The position numbers and the translations under genes are program-made. The notes beneath the pieces were generated by a model, which saw nothing but the letters and a program-made list of their open reading frames with translations, had not been told where the DNA came from and did not search any database. From positions 2,592,001 to 2,656,000 of the forward strand of contig OZ243961.1 in assembly GCA_965214605.1 (NCBI GenBank): a DNA stretch of 64,000 nt, given 5' to 3'. The stretch comes from an uncultured Candidatus Binatia bacterium (GTDB lineage Bacteria > Desulfobacterota > Binatia > Bin18). Numbering within the stretch: the stretch's first letter is position 1; the number at the start of each line of letters is the position of its first letter. Below, in pieces: positions 27,634 through 38,688 of the stretch.

Positions 27634-27656
27634 GACGCACGGACTAAGGAGCAATC

Positions 27657-28325
27657 ATGAATCTGATTCACACGGTATACGAGCCGCCGGGCGACGGGCC
27701 ACATCCAACCCTGCTGACTCTGCACGGCTGGGGCGCCAACGCGCTTGACCTGTTAGGCTTGGCCCCCCATTTGGGCGGCGGTAAGTTTCTGCTCCTCTGC
27801 CCCCAAGGCCCGCTCCAGACCCCCATTGGCGGCGCCATGGTTGGCTACGGCTGGTTTCCCATTACCGGAACCGGGCCGGTCGATATCCCGGCTGTCCTTG
27901 AGGCCCGGGAGCAGGTTCAGACGTTTCTGGCCGATGCGCTCCAGCGCTATCCCATCGATCAACACAAACTGGCGCTCCTCGGGTTCAGCCAAGGCGGGGT
28001 CATGGCCTACAGCCTGGGCTTGAGTGAGCCTGAACGGTATGCCGGATTAGCCGCCCTGAGCTCATGGTTGCCCAAAGATCTGTTGAGCATCTTTCCCGAT
28101 GTTCCGGCCACCGAACAGCTGCCCGTCCTCATTCAGCACGGCAGTCAGGACGAGCTCGTCGACGCCGGCCGTGCCCGTCAGTCGGCTGAAATTCTGCGAA
28201 ACGTGAGTGTGCCCCTCACCTACCGCGAGTATGAGATGGGACATCAGATTAATGCCGAGAGCCTGCGCGACCTCTCGAACTGGCTGCAAGAGAAGGTCGT
28301 GGCGCCGATTCAGCTGGTCTCCTGA
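27657..28325 (+). CDS. Phospholipase/carboxylesterase
   Basis: LHGWGAN, GFSQG, HGSQD, MGHQI. Confidence 0.88.
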   Translation: MNLIHTVYEPPGDGPHPTLLTLHGWGANALDLLGLAPHLGGGKFLLLCPQGPLQTPIGGAMVGYGWFPITGTGPVDIPAVLEAREQVQTFLADALQRYPIDQHKLALLGFSQGGVMAYSLGLSEPERYAGLAALSSWLPKDLLSIFPDVPATEQLPVLIQHGSQDELVDAGRARQSAEILRNVSVPLTYREYEMGHQINAESLRDLSNWLQEKVVAPIQLVS

Positions 28326-29200
28326 GCCAGGAAACGTCCGACCTCGCGCACAAACAGGTCGAGCTGATCATGATGGACCCAGTGACCGGCATTGGGGATG
28401 GTCACGATTGTGGGCTGCTGAAAGGCGCGGGCCCGGCCGTCCTTTTCCGGATCTGACGCCCATGAGTCGGCTCCCCGCAGGAGCAAGGTTGGGCAGCGAA
28501 TACGCCCCCAGATATCCTGGGCATCAGTCAGATTAAAGCGGTATGGCGACTGGGCCCGGACATAGTTATCGAACTTCCAGATATACGTGCCGTCCTCGTT
28601 CCGATTCGCACCGTAGAGCGTCAGATGGCGGGCCTGCTCCTGGCTGAGCCGCGGGTTAGCCCCGCGCATCCGTTCGACAGCCTCCTCAAGGGTTTTGTAG
28701 CGACGCGGCAGCCGACTGGCAAAATCGCGCATCTGCGAGATCCACACCCGCATACGCTCTTGGGCGTTTTTCGGCTGTTCTGCAACCATCTGGGGCGGCG
28801 GGCCCAACCCTTCGATAGCGACGACTTTGTTGACCTGGTCCGGATACACCCCGGAGTACTGGAGCACGACCCCGCCGCCGAGCGAGTGGCCGATCAGGGT
28901 CACTGGAAACCGGTCGGTCTGGGCCAACAGCTGGGCGATATCGACCACATGTTCAATCATGGAGTATTCGCTGCCACGGGCCCACTCAGAGTCGCCGTGT
29001 CCGCGCAGGTCTGGGGCAATGATGTGATAGTCCTCACGAAAGGCTTGGGCGACCCAGTCCCAGTTGCGGCAATGGTCCCGCCCGCCATGAATAAGCGCCA
29101 TCAGCGGCTTCTCTGGATTACCCCAGTCGACGTAGTGCAGTTTGAGGCGTTGGGAGTAGAAATAGTGGGAGGTCGGTCCGATGATATTTTGTTTTGGCAT
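28310..29200 (-). CDS. Alpha/beta hydrolase
   Basis: IHGGRDH, DLRGHGDS, GHSLGG, AGHWVHHD. Confidence 0.88.
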   Translation of the reverse strand: MPKQNIIGPTSHYFYSQRLKLHYVDWGNPEKPLMALIHGGRDHCRNWDWVAQAFREDYHIIAPDLRGHGDSEWARGSEYSMIEHVVDIAQLLAQTDRFPVTLIGHSLGGGVVLQYSGVYPDQVNKVVAIEGLGPPPQMVAEQPKNAQERMRVWISQMRDFASRLPRRYKTLEEAVERMRGANPRLSQEQARHLTLYGANRNEDGTYIWKFDNYVRAQSPYRFNLTDAQDIWGRIRCPTLLLRGADSWASDPEKDGRARAFQQPTIVTIPNAGHWVHHDQLDLFVREVGRFLAQETS

Positions 29201-29439
29201 AGGGGTTCCTCTCGCCTCTGGACAGGGATGGGTTGGTATAGAGGGGGGCTCTCTTATTGTCTTGAGATTGTATCCAGAGCACGGGACGGGTCGCAACTCC
29301 GGGGGATGGGAGCAGAGTGCTGCCCTGATTTTTCCCTGCAATGCTGCGGTTTGCAGTATGCAGCGTGACGGAAAGGTTTTGGGTGCCGACCCTGGACTTC
29401 ATAAGGAAAACAGATGATCTACGCTCATCACGTGTCCCG

Positions 29440-30029
29440 GCGAACGTTATCCTCGACGCCTTCGCCGGATCCGGTACGACCGCGCAGGCGATCTTGGGCG
29501 CTCAACAAAGAAGACGGAGGCAACCGGAAGTTCTTCCTAGTGGAGTGCGAAGACTATGCCGACACGATTACCGCCGAGCGCGTCCGCCGCGTGATAAATG
29601 GGGTGCCAACGGTGAAGGACGAAAACCTGAAAACGGCCTGGGCGGCAGCTTCACCTATTGGACGTTGGGTGACGAAATCAGCGTTGAAAAGATGCTCAGC
29701 GCAGAGAACCTGCCAGACTACGAAACCCTGGCGCGTCACCTCGTCTACACAGCCACCGGCCAAGGCCCAGAGACCGTCCACAAGACAAAGACTCGGGACG
29801 GCTTTTTCTATGAGACGGACGATCGGCTTATCTGATCTACGAGACGGCTCTCGCTTTCCTGCGCAGCGCCGATTCCGCCCTGACCGGCGACTGCGCTGAA
29901 CGTATCGCAAGCCAGGCAAAGAAGAAGCAGAAGAGCGCGATCGTGTTCGCCACGCATAAGTTCATGGGACAAAAGGAATTGAGCGGAACGGGAATCGTGT
30001 TTTGTGGGCTGCCGTATGGGACGGGATAG
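29440..30029 (+). pseudogene. Type III R-M methyltransferase (Mod) C-terminal remnant, frameshifted
   Basis: VILDAFAGSGTTAQA, ALNKEDGGNRKFFLVECEDYADTITAERVRRVI, GGSFTY, LPDYETLA spread over several frames. Confidence 0.8.
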
Positions 30030-30207
30030 GGAGAAGATGCCTCCCGAGGAAGCAATCAGAACACAGGCTGGGGAAAATGGCTGCGCCCTGTGTCCCTAAA
30101 AAATCGCCAAGAAGTTGCCACACGAACTCCGAGAATTCGTGCGGTCGCCGGTCTTCCTGTCGATGAATTGCTCGCGGGCGTCTCACTTGATGCCTACGGC
30201 GCATGCA

Positions 30208-31330
30208 ATGCAGCTCAAAACCTATTAGCAAAACGCACACTTGAGCAGCTCGACCGTTGGCTTGACGCGCTCAATGCGAGAGGGCCGCAAATGCGCTTGA
30301 AGAGAGCGGCGTCAATATTCCGGAAGAGCTTGGGAACTATCCGCTTTCGGCCTGGAAAAGCCTGAAAGAGCAGAGCGTTCCTCCAGCCGTTCAGACTCAA
30401 GACGGCGCCGCCGAAGTCCCTGACTACATCTCTCGTCTCGAACGGCAGCGGCTGGGGAGCCGATTCCGCACGTTTGCCTCAAGGTCCCGACCGGTGGCGG
30501 CAAGACACTCCTCGACGTTGCCGTGCTTGAGCGCATCAAGTAGGATGCTGGCTTTGTGCTGCGGATCTCTCCCACAAAGGCGATCTAGAACAGACACTCA
30601 GGTGGAGAGGGCAGCACGGCAACTCCGGTCAAAGGAGAATCACTACACCCGCCCCATTGCCCTGGTCCGAGTGCAGAGAACGGGCAGGGATCAGCAGGGC
30701 CTGGGAAACATTTATTGCGAGGATGTGCGCGCATACTTGAGACGGAATCTTTCCGTACCGGAGGCGCGGATAAGAGTGCAGTCGTCAGAGAACAAGGAAC
30801 TCGCACGCGAAGATCTATTGAGTGAACATAGCCCTGTCCGCTGGATTCTCACAAAAGACGCGTTCAAAGAAGGCTGGGATTGTTCGTTTGCGTATGTGTT
30901 AGCCCTGCTGGATAACACAACGGCGACGACCACCATAACGCAAAGGAAGAGAGAATCCTGGAGGGTGGTACGCCAGACAGATACAACGCCGCCTGTTTGA
31001 GCCTTTGTTTGAAAGCGGGTTCACTGGTCTGGAAAGGACTTTGCACTCTATCTGGGAAAGAGCAACGCGATATATTGGCGGCACAAGAATAGCCGCCCGC
31101 CAGGACTACAGGGCTGGCGTTGCCAGCGGGTGTATCCCGATTTCGTGGCCTGTCGTAGGGAGGACGGAAAGCTGTTGATTTTGGAAACAAAAGGGATTCA
31201 CCTGAAAGGAAGCGAAGACGCGGGCAAAAGCTGCTGGCACCCCTTGAGGATGCATACGCGGCCGCTCTTGAGAGGGGACAAATAAAATTTAACCAGCCGC
31301 TGTCCGATGAAAGACGTCCGGGCGTACGGA
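30208..31330 (+). pseudogene. Type III R-M restriction subunit (Res) remnant
   Basis: MQLKTY*, CLKVPTGGGKTLL then stop, WILTKDAFKEGWDCSFAYVL, YPDF...LILETKG; stops, frameshifts and deletions. Confidence 0.78.
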
Positions 31331-31595
31331 CACAAAGCTGTCCCTCTTGAAAAATGACGCCCGGCTCATGCGAGGGGAGTTTGAGGGACCGCCGTGCCGG
31401 ACGTGAAGAAGACGATGAGCCGGGATAACTTCTCGTCAGGGGTTTCCGGTGGTAAGCGGTGTTGATAGAGGTTCAGGGCGCGACCGAGCCGTGGAAAGGA
31501 CCGGGAGGGGCTGAGCAGCCGCCTGTGATGCTCGGGCTGGGACAGCCCCTCGGACGGGCGGAAAAGCGACATCAAAAGACGAAAGGAAGATTGTT

Positions 31596-32345
31596 ATGGC
31601 AGGACGACTCGACGGAAAAGTCGCGCTGATCTCCGGCGCCGCCCGGGGGATGGGCCAGGCTGAGGCAGAGCTGTTTGCCCAAGAGGGGGCAAAGGTGGTG
31701 CTGGCCGACGTCTTGGACGACCAGGGTGAACAGGCGGCCCGGGACATCGCTGGGCACGGCGGAGACGCGCGCTACGTCCACCTAGACGTCACTCTAGAGA
31801 GCGATTGGCAGCGCGCCGTTGAAACGGTCGAACAAACCTACGGGAGGCTCTCTATCCTGATCAATAACGCCGGCATTGTCCGGATGGCGCCACTGGACGA
31901 GACGAGTCTTGAGGCCTGGCATGAGGTCATTAATGTGAACCAGACGGGGGTGTTCTTAGGTATGAAACACGCAATTCCAGCCATGCGCCAGGCGGGCGGG
32001 GGATCAATTGTCAATATTTCATCGGTCGCCGGGCTGGTCGGGCTGCCGAACATCCCCGCTTACCAGGCCAGTAAGGGCGCGGTGCGGCTGCTGACCAAAA
32101 ATGCCGCCGTCCAGTACGCCCAGGATAATATTCGGGTGAACTCTATTCATCCAGGCCGAATTGAAACCCCGATGACCGCCCCGTTGGCGTCCGAACGCCG
32201 GGAGATGGTGCTCAATCTGACCCCGCTCAAACGGGACGGGAAACCCCGAGAGGTGGCCTACGGCGCTCTGTTTCTGGCGTCTGATGAGTCTTCGTACGTG
32301 ACCGGGGCGGAACTGGTCATCGACGGGGGCTTCACCGCTCAATAG
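31596..32345 (+). CDS. Short-chain dehydrogenase/reductase (3-alpha-hydroxysteroid/cyclopentanol DH-like)
   Basis: SGAARGMG, NNAG, YQASKG, VTGAELVIDGG. Confidence 0.9.
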   Translation: MAGRLDGKVALISGAARGMGQAEAELFAQEGAKVVLADVLDDQGEQAARDIAGHGGDARYVHLDVTLESDWQRAVETVEQTYGRLSILINNAGIVRMAPLDETSLEAWHEVINVNQTGVFLGMKHAIPAMRQAGGGSIVNISSVAGLVGLPNIPAYQASKGAVRLLTKNAAVQYAQDNIRVNSIHPGRIETPMTAPLASERREMVLNLTPLKRDGKPREVAYGALFLASDESSYVTGAELVIDGGFTAQ

Positions 32346-32357
32346 GAGGCAGGCAAG

Positions 32358-33104
32358 ATGACGCCCAGAGTATTCTTCCGACCCGGCTGAAGCTCGTGCG
32401 CCAAAACGAAAGAGTTGCTTTCGTCGTGGGGAGTTGCTTTTGAGGAGATCAATGTTGAGCAAGATCCGCAGGCAGGAGCCGAGCTCAAACGCCGCCAGGT
32501 CCCGCTCGTCCCGGCTGTTGCGCTTGGTGATCAGATTGTGCACGGCTGGGACCCGCCCGCCCTCGCCGCCTTGGTTGGCGTGGCTTATTCAGCTCCCCCA
32601 CAGCTTTCACCGCCGGAACTTGCCGTACAGCTTGACCGGATTCTGGAAGCCGCCCAACGGGCACTTCGGCCCCTCTCTGTCGAACAGCTGCAGACCACAG
32701 CTCCTGACCGCGCCCGAACGCTGCGTGATATCGGGTATCATATCTTTCGTCTCAGCCTCGGCTTTCACGACGCGGCCCAACAAGGACGCTTCCCGGCGGC
32801 CTGGCTGCTGGAAGCCGTGCCGACCGATATGGGCGATGGAGCAGCCCTGGCACGCTATGGAGAAACGGTGCGGGCCCGTCTGTCAGGCTGGTTTGCCACA
32901 CACCCCGGCCAGCCGTTTTCTGTCCCGGTGCAAACCTACTATGGACCTCAGTCTCTCCACGCCCTGTTGGAGCGGACCAATTGGCATGCGGTCCAACATC
33001 TGCGCCAGGTGTACGCCCTGCTAGAGACGGCTGGACTGACTCCCGAGCGGTCCCTCGGCGCCTGGGATTACGTTGGCCTGCCGCTGCCGGATTCGATTTG
33101 GTAA
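32358..33104 (+). CDS. Glutaredoxin (UxxC)-DinB fusion, probable selenoprotein (UGA codon 11)
   Basis: AGGAGG RBS, ATG 32358: MTPRVFFRPG-TGA(32388-90)-SSCAKTKELLSSWGVAFEEINVEQDP; Grx VP motif; DinB-like RDIGYHIF and WHAVQHLRQ. Confidence 0.85.
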
Positions 33105-33123
33105 GAGAGGCAACGTCGTATCC

Positions 33124-34143
33124 ATGATCAGTGTTCTTGTCCTGTTCAAACGCATCATCAGAACGCTCCGCAAGGATAGACTGGACCGCGTCGTGCTGGC
33201 TCTGGTGGTGATCACGCTTGTCGGCATGCTGGGCATGGCCTACTTTGACTCTCTGCCTTTGGCCGACTCGCTCTGGTGGACAATTGTGACCATTACCACT
33301 GTTGGCTACGGGGATATTTCTCCGGCATCTCTGGGCGGGAGGATTGTTGGCGTGTTGCTGATGCTGTTTGGCATTGGCTTTCTGGGCCTGTTGACGGCGA
33401 CCCTGGCCAGTAGCTTTGTTGAGGAACGACGGCAGGAGGGAAAAGGCGTGAATCCGGTACATGTGGCTCAGCATCTGCTGCTGTGCGGCTGGAGTTATAA
33501 AGCTAAGGAAATTGTCGAAGAGGTCCGGGCCGATGATGCAGTCCAGATCCGTCCGGTGGTCCTGATCGCCGAGTTGACGGAAAAACCCCTGGAAGATGAC
33601 CAGGTGTACTTTGTGACTGGAGCGGTCACGCAGCAGACCCTGTATAAGGCGAACGCTGGGCAGGCCCAGGCGGCCATTGTCTTATCCGATGAGAGTATTG
33701 AGGCCCATACCAGAGACGCCAAGACCATTCTGGACACACTGACGATCAAGTCGACATATCCAGACCTATACACCAGTGTGGAGCTGGCCGACTCCAAAAA
33801 TGTCGAACACTGCCGGTTGGCCAAGGCCGATGAGATTATTGTCTCGGGCGAGCTGAGTACCAATCTTCTCGTGCGAGCCAGCTTCGACCACGGCGTGACG
33901 CAAATTATTACCGAGCTGGTGAGCAACCGCTTTGGGAGTGAAATTTATAAAACCGTACCGCCCCCCAAATGCGTGGGCCGACCTTTCCTTGAGGTGTTGA
34001 CCCTGTTGAAGATGGACCACAATATTATTGTTGTGGCGGTTGAGAGCGCCAAACAAGGACACTTTCTTGCGAACCCTCCGAATAGCTATATAATTGACGA
34101 AAGAGATCGTCTCGTCGTGGTTGGCAAAGATCGTCAGGCGTAG
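33124..34143 (+). CDS. Two-TM potassium channel with RCK/TrkA domain
   Basis: TITTVGYGD filter; HLLLCGWS RCK start; C-terminal TrkA-C. Confidence 0.92.
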   Translation: MISVLVLFKRIIRTLRKDRLDRVVLALVVITLVGMLGMAYFDSLPLADSLWWTIVTITTVGYGDISPASLGGRIVGVLLMLFGIGFLGLLTATLASSFVEERRQEGKGVNPVHVAQHLLLCGWSYKAKEIVEEVRADDAVQIRPVVLIAELTEKPLEDDQVYFVTGAVTQQTLYKANAGQAQAAIVLSDESIEAHTRDAKTILDTLTIKSTYPDLYTSVELADSKNVEHCRLAKADEIIVSGELSTNLLVRASFDHGVTQIITELVSNRFGSEIYKTVPPPKCVGRPFLEVLTLLKMDHNIIVVAVESAKQGHFLANPPNSYIIDERDRLVVVGKDRQA

Positions 34144-34156
34144 GAGGAAAGCAGGT

Positions 34157-34555
34157 ATGTCCTCAGAGTATTTTGAGACGGTAAAGACATTTTTGTTAGA
34201 CTTGGGTTATGCGGTGACAGAGGAAGACCCGGACCAGCAATTGGTACTTGTCCGGGATGAAGAAAATGGGATTACCGATCTGATCGTGGATTGTGAAGAT
34301 CCGATTCTCATCCTTGAGCAGATGATCTTGCCGGTTCCGAGCAATCCGGGCGCGCTGTTTGAGCGGTTGCTCCAAATGAACCGGACGCTCGTCCATGGCG
34401 CGTTTGTGTTGGACGAGACCAGCAAAATGGTGTTGTTTCGGGATACGTTGCGCCTAGAAAACCTGGATATGAACGAATTAGAAGGCTCTATTGAAGCGCT
34501 CAGCTTGGCCCTGGCCGAAAATGCCGACGAGTTGTTGGCCTTTAGCAAACAATGA
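34157..34555 (+). CDS. YbjN/CesT-like chaperone-fold protein
   Basis: LLQMNRTLVHGAFVLD...FRDTL; position before pspA. Confidence 0.72.
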   Translation: MSSEYFETVKTFLLDLGYAVTEEDPDQQLVLVRDEENGITDLIVDCEDPILILEQMILPVPSNPGALFERLLQMNRTLVHGAFVLDETSKMVLFRDTLRLENLDMNELEGSIEALSLALAENADELLAFSKQ

Positions 34556-34567
34556 GGGAGACCACCT

Positions 34568-35287
34568 ATGGCAAGTGTTTTTCAGCGACTGTTTAAGTTC
34601 GGACAATCCGAGGCGCACGCGGCTCTCGATAAATTTGAAGACCCGATAAAAATGACCGAGCAGGGGATCCGCGATCTCAAGCGTGACCTCCAGGCAAGTA
34701 TGAGCAGTTTGGCCGAGGTCAAAGCCATTGCCATCCGGCTCAGACGGGACACCGATAACAATAAAAGCATGGCCGCCGAGTACGAGCGCAAGGCCATGAT
34801 GCTGCTCCAAAGAATGCAAAACGGCGCGCTTGACCAGACCGAGGCGGAGCGCTTGGCCGGGGAAGCCCTGCGGCGCAAAGAAGAGTGCCTGGAAAAGGCC
34901 ACTCGTACACAAAAGGACTGGGAAACGCAGGATACCATGGCTTCCCAGCTCCAGGGGAAAATCGAGAAGCTCAAATCAACCGTCTCAAAGTATGAAAACG
35001 ATCTGGTCACCCTCAAAGCGCGGGCCAAAACCGCGGCTTCGACCAAGAAGATCAATCAGCAGCTGTCCAAGATCGATTCATCTGGCACGATCGCCATGCT
35101 GGAAAAGATGCGCACCAAGGTTGAAGAAGACGAGTCGCTAGCCCAGGCTTACGGCTCAATAGCCGATGCCGACCAGACCATTGAGGACGAGATTGACAGC
35201 GCGCTGACCTCCAAAACCGCGCCGGCGACCAGCAGCGCCCTGGCCGACCTGAAGGCCAAAATGGGGATTATCGCCGCCGGCTCATAG
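34568..35287 (+). CDS. pspA: PspA/IM30 family protein
   Basis: VFQRLFK...EDPIKMTEQGIRDL, long coiled coil, LADLKAKMG. Confidence 0.9.
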   Translation: MASVFQRLFKFGQSEAHAALDKFEDPIKMTEQGIRDLKRDLQASMSSLAEVKAIAIRLRRDTDNNKSMAAEYERKAMMLLQRMQNGALDQTEAERLAGEALRRKEECLEKATRTQKDWETQDTMASQLQGKIEKLKSTVSKYENDLVTLKARAKTAASTKKINQQLSKIDSSGTIAMLEKMRTKVEEDESLAQAYGSIADADQTIEDEIDSALTSKTAPATSSALADLKAKMGIIAAGS

Positions 35288-35304
35288 CACAAAGGAGAAC
35301 GCTG

Positions 35305-35856
35305 GTGGCATTCCGGGACTGGTTAAAGGGCTTGTTTGCCGACAAAGAGCCAGAGCTAGATCCACTTGAGCTTTCCCTGGCCGACCTGAAAAAGGGCTAT
35401 CTGGTCGACTACGACCTCAAAACCTGGCAGGTCGCCAGTCACAATACCTATGACTTTGACGGTGACCGAGCCGAGGAGTGGGAACTGTTCTCGGGTGATG
35501 ACCGCTGCTATCTCGGCGTTGAGCGGGACGACGAGGACGAGTGGTCAATCAGCCGCAAGATTGCGTTTTCGGCGCTCGGCACAGAGATTAAAGACCACTT
35601 GATCAAGCACGACGACCCGCCTGGGACAATTGTGTACGATGGGACCCGTTACACCCTTGAAGAGAGCGGCGCAGGGCATTTCTTTGCCGATGGCCGGGTA
35701 GCGGGCGATGAGATGATCTACTGGGATTACACGGACGAGACGGGTGAGAAACTACTTACCCTCGAACAGTGGGGCGAGACCGAGTTTGAAGCCTCTGTTG
35801 GCAAGACGGTTCAGGCCTACGAATTTCGGAATATTTTGCCCAAGCACCAGGGGTGA
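35305..35856 (+). CDS. DUF4178-like protein
   Basis: LKKGYLVDYDLKTWQV, YWDY, LTLEQWGETEFE; context after pspA. Confidence 0.7.
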   Translation: MAFRDWLKGLFADKEPELDPLELSLADLKKGYLVDYDLKTWQVASHNTYDFDGDRAEEWELFSGDDRCYLGVERDDEDEWSISRKIAFSALGTEIKDHLIKHDDPPGTIVYDGTRYTLEESGAGHFFADGRVAGDEMIYWDYTDETGEKLLTLEQWGETEFEASVGKTVQAYEFRNILPKHQG

Positions 35857-36305
35857 CGAGGGGATGTCGAAACGGCGGCCCATCATCTCGGTGCGCTTCC
35901 CCGGAAAATGAATGCCCCTGGGTTCTTGGAGTTTTTCCAGCGGAACTCGGCGTAGCCCCCCAGACCCCGTCATGCCACCAACGGGTGGGGAAACAGGCCG
36001 TCGAACCTTCCCCCTGATCGGATTCACGCGCGCTCCCCAGCGGCGCCAAACGCCCGCCTGCCCTCACCCGGCTCACACTTGATGGAAGACGGGGGTGAAG
36101 AATCTCTGCCGCTCTCCTCAAGATTGGGTGGGAGAACTGCAAGCCGTGTTGACGTCCCTAGGCCGTAAGAGTCTCTCGACAATGGGACCCGGCTGCCCCC
36201 CAAGAGAGCAGAGCACACGATCTCCCCCATCCTCAGACCGAGGTGGGGGGTCTGGACAATCCGACGACGAGCTGCGGTGGACCGCGGGGAGTGCTTGGAG
36301 AGCTC

Positions 36306-37850
36306 TTAATACACCTCCCAGCGGCCGCGTCTATAATACTCGTGTAGAACCGGCTGGAGTTCGTTGTTCACACTGATCTGAGTGCTGTCGTCAAAAACAC
36401 CCTTGCCAAAGTGGGTCATGGACAGGAGTGCCTCTTGGTTGAGAAAGCGCGTCTCAAGATGATCAAAGGACAGCCCTAAGAGGGCCTCCTTGAGGGCCTT
36501 GTGCTCCATCAGGCTTGCGTCCACCCCCAACACAAATCCCCACTCCCCCATCGTTGGAATGTGGTTGTGGTAGGCCAGCGGACTCAGGCCGGCCGCTTGG
36601 AACGTCTTGTAGATACACACAAACGCCTTACGGGTAAACGATGGACTCGTTGCCTGGGTTACAACCACCCCGCCCCGTTTGAGCTGTTTTTTGCACAGGC
36701 GGTAGAAGTCGAGCGAGTACAGACGCGCCAGAACAACGGAATTTGGATCTGGCAGGTCAATGATAATCACATCAAAGAGCCGCCGGGCCGTCTGTAAAAA
36801 GGTGAACGCATCGGCGTGCACAATTTCAACCCGGGGATCGCTCAGGGCGTTGTCGTTGAGCTGGACGAGGACCGGATGCGAAGCTGCCAGTTCAGTCATG
36901 GCCGGGTCGAGATCAACAAGGGTGAGGCGGCTGACCGCCGGATATTTGAGAACTTCCCGCGCCGCCAGTCCGTCCCCCCCGCCCAGAATCAGCACCTCGT
37001 ATCCATCGGTCATCAACGATTTGCCGACGAGGCTCAGAGCGGGGTGAACTAAGGGCTCATGATAGCGCTCCTCGTCATAGCTGCTGAACTGCTGGTTGCC
37101 GTTGATGTACAGCCAGTAATACTCTCGCCAGCGCGTCATGACCAGCCGCTGGTAGGTCGTCTGTTTCACTAAGATGATGGTATCTTTGTAGAGCGCTTGC
37201 TCGCCAAACAAGACAATCGGTTTGGCCCACGCAGCAAGGATGAAGAGACCGCTGCTCACCCCGACCCACAGCCCCAACATGAGTCGCGGGCGGGCAAACA
37301 CGGACCGAAAGCGAAACACAAACACGGAGGCGACGACAAAATTCACCACTCCTAGCGCAATCGGGGTATAGGTCAGGCCGAGATACGGCAGGGCTACAAA
37401 GGCAAAGACGAGGCCACCCACCAAGGCTCCGTAATAGTCCTTTTCCAGGACCGAGGAGATATTCACCCGCAGTTCTTCATAGCCGGCGTTGACACGGGTG
37501 ATGAGCGGGATTTCCATGCCGATCAACAGGCCAATAGCAATCGCCAAGGGGTAGATCACGACCCCGGCATTGTTCACAAACGCAGAGAGGGCATAGCTGG
37601 CGGCGGCCGCACTCGCGCACAGGAGCGACAGGCCGAATTCGATAACGGTAAAGGTATCAAGCAGCGCAGCGCTAAAGGAGCGGCTCAGACGGCTTCCCAC
37701 CCCCATAGCAAACAGCATCAGCGACATCAGCAGGGTCCACTGAAGCGTGGCATTGCCGAGAAAGTAGCTGGCCAGGGTACACAGCACAAACTCGGCCACA
37801 ATGCCTGCGCAGCCAGTGGCAAACAGGCACAGCTTCAGCAGGCTAGACAC
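36306..37850 (-). CDS. speE: Membrane-anchored spermidine synthase-like aminopropyltransferase
   Basis: N-terminal multi-TM domain; YHEPLVHP, LILGGGDG, IIDLPDP. Confidence 0.85.
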   Translation of the reverse strand: MSSLLKLCLFATGCAGIVAEFVLCTLASYFLGNATLQWTLLMSLMLFAMGVGSRLSRSFSAALLDTFTVIEFGLSLLCASAAAASYALSAFVNNAGVVIYPLAIAIGLLIGMEIPLITRVNAGYEELRVNISSVLEKDYYGALVGGLVFAFVALPYLGLTYTPIALGVVNFVVASVFVFRFRSVFARPRLMLGLWVGVSSGLFILAAWAKPIVLFGEQALYKDTIILVKQTTYQRLVMTRWREYYWLYINGNQQFSSYDEERYHEPLVHPALSLVGKSLMTDGYEVLILGGGDGLAAREVLKYPAVSRLTLVDLDPAMTELAASHPVLVQLNDNALSDPRVEIVHADAFTFLQTARRLFDVIIIDLPDPNSVVLARLYSLDFYRLCKKQLKRGGVVVTQATSPSFTRKAFVCIYKTFQAAGLSPLAYHNHIPTMGEWGFVLGVDASLMEHKALKEALLGLSFDHLETRFLNQEALLSMTHFGKGVFDDSTQISVNNELQPVLHEYYRRGRWEVY

Positions 37851-38688
37851 ACCAGATGATCAGGAAAGATGCGCCCACATAGGAGAACATCTCCAGACAG
37901 GCCACGCCGAGATGGGGCTGGTCTTGTTCGACGAGCTTGGCCGAGATGCTAGTGCCGGGCAGCAAGATCTTGTCCGTTGCGAAACGAACCACGGGCAGGA
38001 AGAGGAGCCCGACTAGGGCATAGCTGCCAAAGGCCATAAAATTGCTCTGCCAGGAGAAGAATTCCTCGCTAGCGGCAAAGCCTAAGATGTTGCCCATTGC
38101 AATGAGGGCTCCGGCAAAGCTGACCCCAACCGCGACATTATCACGCTCAATCTCGCTATGAATGCTATAGGGGGTAATCCACTCGTACATCAGCCCGGTG
38201 AGTATCAGCCCGAGCTGCCCCACGCTCCAGAAGGCCAGCGCGGTCCAGATCGTTCCGGTTTCACCGGACAAGGCGCCAAACAGGATGAGACCAGTGGCAA
38301 TATATATCCCGGCTTCGGTTATGCCGGTGCCCGCATTATGGTCGTGGATGATTTCCTTTTCGTTCTCGAACTGAAACAAAATCAGCTTATCGCTGACCAC
38401 GGTTGAGATGTTGAGGAGGACGATGCCCAAGGGACCGTATAGGAGGATATCGACCACATCTTCCACTAGACCGTGTGACGGACCGCTGAGCACCCCGCCG
38501 ATGGTCAAAATCAGTCCCAAGTAATAGCCGACCAGCGCCAAAGCCAGGGCAACATTATCGTTGTCCACGAGCTCTTCTTTGACACGGAACCCACGGTGCA
38601 GCAGATCAAAAACCCGCTTGCCAAGCCAAAACAAGGCGTAGGCACAGAGGAGATAGAAAAAGGCGAGGATGAGGGAATCGAGAGTCAT
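37843..38688 (-). CDS. DUF350 (duplicated) membrane protein
   Basis: Repeated EL/EI..DNVA(L/V) motifs in a multi-TM protein. Confidence 0.75.
   Translation of the reverse strand: MTLDSLILAFFYLLCAYALFWLGKRVFDLLHRGFRVKEELVDNDNVALALALVGYYLGLILTIGGVLSGPSHGLVEDVVDILLYGPLGIVLLNISTVVSDKLILFQFENEKEIIHDHNAGTGITEAGIYIATGLILFGALSGETGTIWTALAFWSVGQLGLILTGLMYEWITPYSIHSEIERDNVAVGVSFAGALIAMGNILGFAASEEFFSWQSNFMAFGSYALVGLLFLPVVRFATDKILLPGTSISAKLVEQDQPHLGVACLEMFSYVGASFLIIWCV

Follow-up and report, generated by a model that had tools for sequence, protein, structure and literature searches.

A probable selenocysteine-containing glutaredoxin-DinB fusion in a Candidatus Binatia genome and its relation to a neighbouring PspA module

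Does a gene that is commonly annotated as coding for a DinB-like protein begin upstream of its annotated start, with an in-frame TGA read as selenocysteine (Sec), and is its product linked to the potassium (K+) channel and PspA genes that follow it? The gene lies in a 64,000-nucleotide (nt) stretch, here called the window, from the genome of an uncultured Candidatus Binatia bacterium (assembly GCA_965214605.1, contig OZ243961.1, positions 2,592,001 to 2,656,000 of the forward strand). A listing of open reading frames (ORFs) under genetic code table 11 opens the gene at a TTG at 32415, giving a product of 229 amino acids (aa). Judged from the sequence comparisons given below, positions 32358-33104 are very probably a genuine selenoprotein gene, mis-annotated as a 229-aa "DinB protein", and code for a glutaredoxin domain fused to a DinB domain, Grx(Sec)-DinB. 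This reading is based on a TGA kept at the aligned codon in 80 of 80 loci, on homologues with Cys at the same position, on a hairpin resembling a selenocysteine insertion sequence (SECIS) and on the Sec machinery found in the same genome; against chance, it is the comparative evidence that decides.

The initial annotation of the window had already set the ORF start at 32415 against a ribosome-binding site and an ATG at 32358 that open MTPRVFFRPG-UGA-SSC, placing the UGA at the N-terminal Cys of a glutaredoxin CxxC motif. It had also pointed to a hairpin behind the UGA (ACGAAAG-AGUUG-CUUUCGU, 32406-32424, extended by CCA/UGG) and to a DinB-like His triad (YHIF; WHAVQH). Direct reading, the Pfam matches, the aligned Cys homologues and the folding of the RNA bear out each of these elements, all of which are on the plus strand:

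32344..32349, plus strand: Shine-Dalgarno-like AGGAGG, 8 nt 5' of the ATG, overlapping the stop codon TAG (32343-32345) of a short-chain dehydrogenase (SDR) gene
32358..33104, plus strand: full Grx(Sec)-DinB coding sequence (ATG 32358-32360, 248 codons, TAA 33102-33104)
32370..32540, plus strand: Glutaredoxin/NrdH-like thioredoxin-fold domain (Pfam match at residues 5-61, the fold extending to about residue 78)
32388..32390, plus strand: UGA, predicted Sec at residue 11, first position of the G-U-S-S-C redox motif
32401..32429, plus strand: SECIS-like hairpin of 29 nt (upper stem 7 bp, loop 5 nt, lower stem 3 bp)
32406-32412 and 32418-32424, plus strand: arms of the upper stem, ACGAAAG and CTTTCGT, with the loop AGTTG (AGUUG) at 32413-32417
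32401-32403 and 32427-32429, plus strand: outer pairing, CCA with TGG
32628..33011, plus strand: DinB_2 four-helix-bundle domain (Pfam match at residues 91-218)
32739-32741 (H128), 32985-32987 (H210) and 32997-32999 (H214), plus strand: codons of the His triad

With TGA translated as U, the 248-aa product opens with MTPRVFFRPG-U (TGA 32388-32390) and goes on with SSCAKTKELLSSWG, its N-terminus reading MTPRVFFRPGUSSCAKTKELLSSWG... Public gene calls are mostly truncated at one place: the majority of the 120 matches listed have 229 aa, with 92% query coverage, and begin right behind the redox motif. Starts just past the motif are the expected output of a gene caller at a Sec codon.

We scanned genome contigs for homologues, with one genome per species, and kept the best 80 of 119 relatives as loci. 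The aligned TGA was located in 73 of these loci by a first pattern, in 6 by a looser pattern and in one (L012) by eye. It is present in all 80 loci, at protein identities of 47-80%, with the context (R/K/Q)(P/Q)G-U-(S/T)SC conserved on both sides and a start codon 24-63 nt 5' of the TGA in every locus. Among 151 genomes sampled from the window's class there are six matches, each holding exactly one in-frame TGA. Four of them are distant versions with 31-36% identity (L089-L092, from genomes G316, G233, G215 and G202), found in four of the eight sampled genomes of another family of the class; two of these read ...QPG-U-SSC-LRTKEFL and ...RKG-U-ASC-ARTKEFL. The sequence space occupied by the Sec form is therefore wider than that of the 80 close loci. 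Homologues with Cys in place of Sec exist as well: three full-length CSSC forms were among the first matches (P0063, P0066 and P0070), and the best 150 of 877 representatives include 50 full-length forms with C-(S/T)-(S/A/G)-C. One further full-length relative among these 150, P0215, has S-T-S-S replacing C/U-x-x-C and is either a redox-dead fusion variant or a sequencing or gene-call oddity.

These comparisons bear on a simpler explanation, that the TGA is an ordinary stop and the real gene is the 229-aa DinB ORF from TTG 32415, preceded by a decayed glutaredoxin remnant. Table 11 does yield this ORF, nearly all public gene calls take this same form, and the RNA around the hairpin is no stabler than shuffled sequence when a wider stretch is folded. 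A decayed remnant is hard to reconcile with upstream codons, starts at ribosome-binding-site distance and a U-x-x-C register that are all kept in 80/80 loci at 47-80% identity. A start at 32415 would also cost the thioredoxin fold, which is predicted with high confidence, its strand 1 and its redox motif, and both full-length Cys forms and Sec machinery exist. We consider an ordinary stop very improbable.

The window's genome codes for the components of Sec synthesis and insertion. Matches were found to SelA (6.3e-155), to the wing domain of SelB and to SelD (3.2e-116), and a tRNA-Sec gene is present, so that selA, selB (via the wing domain), selC (the tRNA-Sec) and selD are all accounted for. 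Two of these loci are placed as follows:

C1:1899798-1900954, window's own genome, same strand as the adjoining SelB wing-domain match: selD, with one in-frame TGA
C1:3624480-3624574: tRNA-Sec (tca), adjoining selA

Because of the one in-frame TGA in its gene, SelD is itself predicted to be of the Sec type. An alternative is that the ribosome reads through the TGA at 32388-32390 but inserts Cys or Trp, through near-cognate or reassigned decoding, or that the codon is an assembly error. TGA is the terminal stop in 40 of 79 complete homologues; it is thus an ordinary stop there, which argues against reassignment and makes the internal TGA context-specific. The complete Sec system with its Sec-type SelD and a SECIS-like hairpin with frozen synonymous sites 3' of the codon also speak against decoding as Cys or Trp. 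As to an assembly error, contigs from four public runs belonging to three studies, two of the runs possibly being the source sample, are identical over the stretch spanning 32388-32390 and read TGA without any differing letter, neither TGT nor TGC. We hold this to be the least credible of the explanations considered. On the sequence evidence, then, the UGA at 32388-32390 is predicted to be decoded as Sec, with the hairpin at 32401-32429 directing the insertion and the organism's own selA, selB, selD and tRNA-Sec supplying it.

The 29-nt hairpin folds with -10.1 kcal/mol (z = -3.07), only 2 of 200 shuffles folding equally well, and 22 nt separate the UGA from its loop. Published rules for bacterial SECIS elements (bSECIS) specify a loop of 3-9 nt, an upper stem of 4-16 bp, a G in the first two loop positions, a UGA-to-loop distance of 16-37 nt and a minimum free energy of -7.5 kcal/mol or lower (PMC13188914, Fig. 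2 legend). The window hairpin agrees with all the rules in that legend, its loop having G at position 2 followed by U. We compared the hairpin across 81 sequences (68 distinct) at 10 pairs, or 680 pair cells. Standard pairs occupy 92.1% of the cells vs 36.9-56.8% with the 3' partners slid, and 0 of 500 shuffles match the observed pairing or covariation score. Compensatory changes occur at pair 22-34 (AU>CG in 10 distinct sequences) and at pair 23-33 (AU>GC in 16 distinct sequences); they couple K>R (CGG/AGA) with S>A (GCG) and CTT>CTC, turning K-E-L-L-S into R-E-L-L-A.

Synonymous sites in the hairpin are frozen, Thr+6 being ACG in 81/81 sequences and Ser+11 being TCG in 63/63, and the G in alignment column 36 is invariant. 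Elsewhere in the stretch, four-fold codons take three to four different third bases. This freezing is the strongest single line of evidence for the candidate SECIS. The 50 Cys forms vary in the residues over the hairpin arms (+6 and +11 to +13), a comparison to be read with the caveat that the Cys forms are more diverged among themselves than the Sec forms.

The encoded protein has two domains. Pfam Glutaredoxin (PF00462) matches with 3.3e-13 and 50.1 bits (gathering cut-off 22.9), and DinB_2 with 6.5e-7 and 30.3 bits (cut-off 24.8). Ten residues, G10, U/C11, S13, C14, P52, G63, W64, H128, H210 and H214, are invariant in 49/49 aligned sequences, as are several Arg (R120, R131, R206 and R216) and a C-terminal G-L-P-x-P...W tail. 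H128, H210 and H214 form a predicted three-His metal site. An AlphaFold2 model built from the 49-sequence alignment has a predicted local distance difference test score (pLDDT) of 92.4 and a predicted template modelling (TM) score of 0.85. In the model the N-terminal 78 residues adopt a thioredoxin fold, in the order strand-helix-strand-helix-strand-strand-helix, with the U11-C14 motif at the start of helix 12-23 and P52 at the cis-Pro position.

The best sequence match among solved structures is "cGrx1" (7c10, 1e-12), which we take to be the Cys variant of a Clostridium oremlandii selenoprotein, followed by NrdH-redoxins (2.6e-10 to 1e-8, with 2.6e-10 for NrdH 1h75). By Foldseek, the N-terminal domain aligns with TM scores normalised to the target (TMt) of 0.88-0.90 (7c10 0.90; NrdH 0.88). 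The C-terminal bundle matches YfiT (1rxq) and DR0053 (6iz2, TMt 0.84), along with 2f22 and 3di5, at a probability of 1.00; the DinB-fold structures match at 12-19% sequence identity. Whole-chain Foldseek matches to glutathione S-transferases were discarded as not meaningful, with root-mean-square deviations of 11-15 Å.

Several results weigh against a Sec-directing hairpin in a redox enzyme and must be set beside the evidence above. The stretch that holds the hairpin codes for a helix and is strongly conserved, and the Sec forms are more closely related among themselves than the Cys forms, so the hairpin's conservation is partly at the protein level. Only 2 of the 10 pairs change on both sides, and at least as many do so in 477 of 500 shuffles. 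At pair 23-33, 22 of the 68 distinct sequences are mismatched (A.C), and RNAalifold alone consequently returns only 3 consensus pairs; we set that consensus aside and used explicit pair counts and synonymous-site counts. The wider 66-nt stretch with the hairpin is no stabler than shuffles (z = -0.31, 69/200). The common Rokubacteria form folds otherwise, as a 12-bp bulged stem with -16.2 kcal/mol (z = -4.84), and one SAR324 form folds weakly (-8.0 kcal/mol, z = -1.48). At the protein level, none of the curated NCBIfam redoxin families matches above its cut-off: YruB scores 49.3 vs 88.55 bits, with NrdH (TIGR02194; 36.7 vs 85.75), Uxx_star (33.9 vs 66) and Grx3 also below. Nor is a characterised enzyme with the Grx-DinB architecture known.

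How does this protein relate to those already described? Sec glutaredoxins (Grx, PF00462, UxxC) are an experimentally verified selenoprotein family (PMC13188914, Table 1). Grx(Sec)-DinB resembles them in its thioredoxin fold, in having Sec first in a UxxC motif at the N-terminus of helix 1, in the conserved cis-Pro position (here P52) and in the bacterial SECIS right behind the UGA. Unlike these stand-alone proteins of about 80-90 residues, it is extended by a DinB domain of 170 residues, its motif is U-S-S-C and it is found in Binatia, Rokubacteria, Acidobacteria and SAR324-type genomes. NrdH-redoxins (1h75, 4hs1, 1r7h; TIGR02194) share the small glutaredoxin-like fold with CxxC (TMt 0.88), but Grx(Sec)-DinB is below the NrdH cut-off, fused and Sec-containing, and has no ribonucleotide-reductase context. 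With the DinB/YfiT superfamily (1rxq, 6iz2, bacillithiol and mycothiol S-transferases) it shares the four-helix bundle and three His on helices 2 and 4. The known members of that superfamily use a free low-molecular-weight thiol, have no fused redoxin and are only 12-19% identical to it.

Closest are the Cys-form Grx-DinB_2 fusions, which have the same two domains and the motif (W/Y)xPG-C-(S/T)-S-C...K-E-(F/L)-L at 30-40% identity, some at 50-52%, but carry Cys for Sec and variable residues over the 3' arm of the hairpin. Their Atlas clusters combine PF00462 with PF12867; in the few members that have a record, the phylum is most often Pseudomonadota. They are annotated as "DinB family protein" or "glutaredoxin domain-containing protein", and our literature search returned no characterised member. 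The search likewise gave no description of the Sec form or of a Grx-DinB fusion, though Deng et al. 2026 or the supplementary tables of other papers may list the family. The former study, on the selenoproteome of groundwater metagenome-assembled genomes (MAGs), is cited in the 2026 review PMC13188914, whose Table 1 of 119 families does not include a Sec Grx-DinB fusion; the available passages of the table in PMC9312934 do not include one either, and the family reaches no NCBIfam cut-off. UxxC thioredoxin-fold selenoproteins are already known, and what appears to be new, as far as the literature searched goes, is the Sec-form two-domain Grx-DinB family.

The second question concerns the genes around Grx-DinB. 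The initial annotation proposed that a Sec-dependent enzyme handling thiols or electrophiles may be coupled to K+ flux and PspA membrane repair, loosely as in glutathione-gated Kef systems. On such a reading it would sense thiol or electrophile stress and gate both. The neighbouring features are:

31596..32345, plus strand: SDR gene, directly upstream with a 12-nt gap
33124-34143, plus strand: K+ channel (Pfam Ion_trans_2 with RCK/TrkA_N and TrkA_C)
34157-34555, plus strand: CesT_Tir_1/YbjN-like protein
34568-35287, plus strand: PspA
35305-35856, plus strand: DUF4178 protein
36306-37850, minus strand: spermine/spermidine-synthase-like protein, divergent half of the PspA module
37843-38688, minus strand: DUF350 protein, divergent half of the PspA module
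29214..33144, no strand assigned: extra segment, about 3.9 kb long, that holds the SDR gene, Grx-DinB and two ORFs to which no Pfam family was assigned
29341-29835 and 30494-31000: the two ORFs without a Pfam family in that segment

The minus strand of the PspA module (33124-38688) also has a 235-aa ORF without a Pfam family. The proposal was right on spacing: the six plus-strand genes follow each other with gaps of 12 (SDR to Grx-DinB), 19 (to the channel), 13 (to CesT/YbjN), 12 (to PspA) and 17 nt (to DUF4178), within the 12-19 bp it gave. Terminator-like sites number 6 vs a shuffle mean of 5.7, and the only one near the Grx-DinB/channel junction is inside a coding sequence. With a 19-nt gap and no convincing terminator, co-transcription of Grx-DinB and the PspA module is possible in the window genome. 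The order SDR, Grx-DinB, channel, CesT, PspA, DUF4178 is moreover common to three related genomes, the window's and those of L007 and L008/G305, with the 12-19-nt gaps kept, which supports a functional link and makes co-expression with the PspA module possible in the window lineage. In addition, the channel has an RCK domain, a sensor of intracellular ligand according to Pfam and the available text of PMC11237479.

Against this link, the channel, CesT, PspA and DUF4178 genes are downstream of Grx-DinB in only 2 of the 80 loci (L007 and L008, the closest relatives), even though the sequence continues for 3 kb or more beyond the gene in 61 loci; on the upstream side, 75 loci have at least 800 nt. 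The SDR gene adjoins Grx-DinB in 4 of the 80, the four most similar, and one of the loci with it (L009, 63% identity, 6 kb downstream) has no channel or PspA. Conversely, the whole channel-CesT-PspA-DUF4178 block, together with the spermine synthase and DUF350 genes, is kept without Grx-DinB nearby in G229, of the same genus, and in G220, G110 and G273, of the same family; among the family members examined, 5 of 5 conserve the PspA module. G229 is collinear with the window over 27648-29213 and again over 33145-35851, with about 255 nt in between, so that its hydrolase genes lead straight to the channel and the 3.9-kb segment is absent. A diverged form of the segment is present in G305/L008. 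Around it we saw no tRNA, integrase or flanking repeats other than short ones at chance level, and signs of a mobile-element origin were accordingly rejected.

CesT/Tir-PspA operons fall into published classes with DUF4178, 7TM-spermine synthase, DUF350 and, in one class, a ligand-sensing K+ channel (Ravi et al., PMC11237479). In what is available of that source, these operons match window positions 33124-38688 domain for domain, the window module mixing the K+ channel of the third group with the DUF4178 and spermine synthase of the second. The PspA block is therefore a stand-alone neighbourhood type as published there, and the same text mentions no glutaredoxin, DinB or selenoprotein component. 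Grx-DinB is not a recurrent member of this neighbourhood, being beside it in 2/80 loci, and the neighbourhood is intact without it in 4/4 relatives.

The likeness to Kef does not hold either. A Kef-type system has a K+/H+ antiporter domain and an ancillary protein; the channel here has Ion_trans_2, RCK/TrkA_N and TrkA_C and no Na_H_Exchanger domain. A selenoenzyme wired to K+ flux and membrane repair is therefore unlikely. From the 2/80 adjacency, the block intact without Grx-DinB in four relatives and the 3.9-kb difference in G229, the position of Grx-DinB beside the PspA module appears to be a lineage-specific juxtaposition, from insertion or deletion of the 3.9-kb segment, and not a functional module. 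Of the initial annotation, the selenoprotein half thus stands, with its TGA in 80/80 loci and in the run contigs, Sec machinery and Cys forms, and the K+/PspA half, lacking conserved adjacency, falls.

The Grx-DinB family occurs in at least 119 species-level genomes, the TGA having been read in the best 80. Record titles of the loci name Binatia, Rokubacteria/Methylomirabilota, Terriglobia, Blastocatellia, SAR324, Thermodesulfobacteriota and others. Titles among L010, L049, L065 and L034 (Enterobacteriaceae, Nitrosocosmicus, Verrucomicrobiia, Actinomycetota) probably belong to mis-binned contigs, since the genes are near-identical to Binatia or Rokubacteria versions. The distribution is patchy: the gene was found in 1 of 201 genomes of a phylum-wide sample, the window's own, and in 6 of 151 of the class sample.

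We also clustered, after a codon-periodicity filter, the 708 ORFs that lie no more than 2.5 kb from Grx-DinB in the 80 loci. The recurrent neighbours are an FGE-sulfatase-domain ORF (40 loci), an aminotransferase (35), an enoyl-CoA hydratase (35) and a GAF histidine kinase (34). They were rejected as functional evidence and kept only as a lead: nearly all come from loci with Rokubacteria/Methylomirabilota titles and so reflect synteny inside one phylum, and the FGE ORF has the opposite orientation. This ORF, of about 290 aa, stands alone and convergent to Grx-DinB, 1.2-2 kb downstream, in 40/80 loci (for example L075:7250-8122, minus strand). EgtB-type sulfoxide synthases combine DinB_2 with an FGE-sulfatase domain. 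A split EgtB-type relationship between Grx-DinB and the FGE ORF is conceivable; the other strand and the restriction to one phylum speak against it, as does the distance in the window's genome, where the two FGE-sulfatase genes are about 89 kb and 598 kb from Grx-DinB.

What might the enzyme do? The DinB superfamily includes metal-dependent bacillithiol and mycothiol S-transferases with a three-His site, as far as the available text of PMC10950700 goes. By this likeness we infer that Grx(Sec)-DinB is a self-contained selenol-dependent reductase or transferase of this "S-transferase-like" superfamily, its catalysis being putative. The metal site of the DinB domain would bind the substrate, for which electrophiles, thiol conjugates and oxidised sulfur compounds are candidates. 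The substrate would then be attacked or reduced by the selenolate of Sec11, and Cys14 would resolve the intermediate, leaving a selenenylsulfide. A thioredoxin-reductase-type system would re-reduce the selenenylsulfide, as for NrdH-like redoxins. NrdH-redoxins are reduced by thioredoxin reductase, and by analogy the NrdH-like fold suggests this route rather than glutathione for Grx(Sec)-DinB. A bolder version, which we put forward only tentatively and think rather doubtful, is a "cofactor-free" S-transferase/reductase in which the tethered, encoded selenolate replaces free bacillithiol, mycothiol or glutathione, in a widespread family missed by the catalogues; in the window lineage it may be co-expressed with the PspA envelope-stress module.

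For the PspA/K+ link, the negative outcome indicates that tight spacing on a single strand is insufficient to infer a functional connection. Recognition of the Grx(Sec)-DinB family corrects many MAG annotations and enlarges the selenoproteomes of, among others, Rokubacteria/Methylomirabilota and Binatia. To the DinB superfamily, which is poorly understood, it adds a branch with its chemistry tied to a redox-active Sec/Cys pair, so that the function becomes testable. If the "cofactor-free" proposal were true, bacteria that lack or spare low-molecular-weight thiols would have a self-contained detoxifying or reducing enzyme, and soil, groundwater and marine phyla would share a widespread selenoprotein family that catalogues and annotation pipelines have overlooked.

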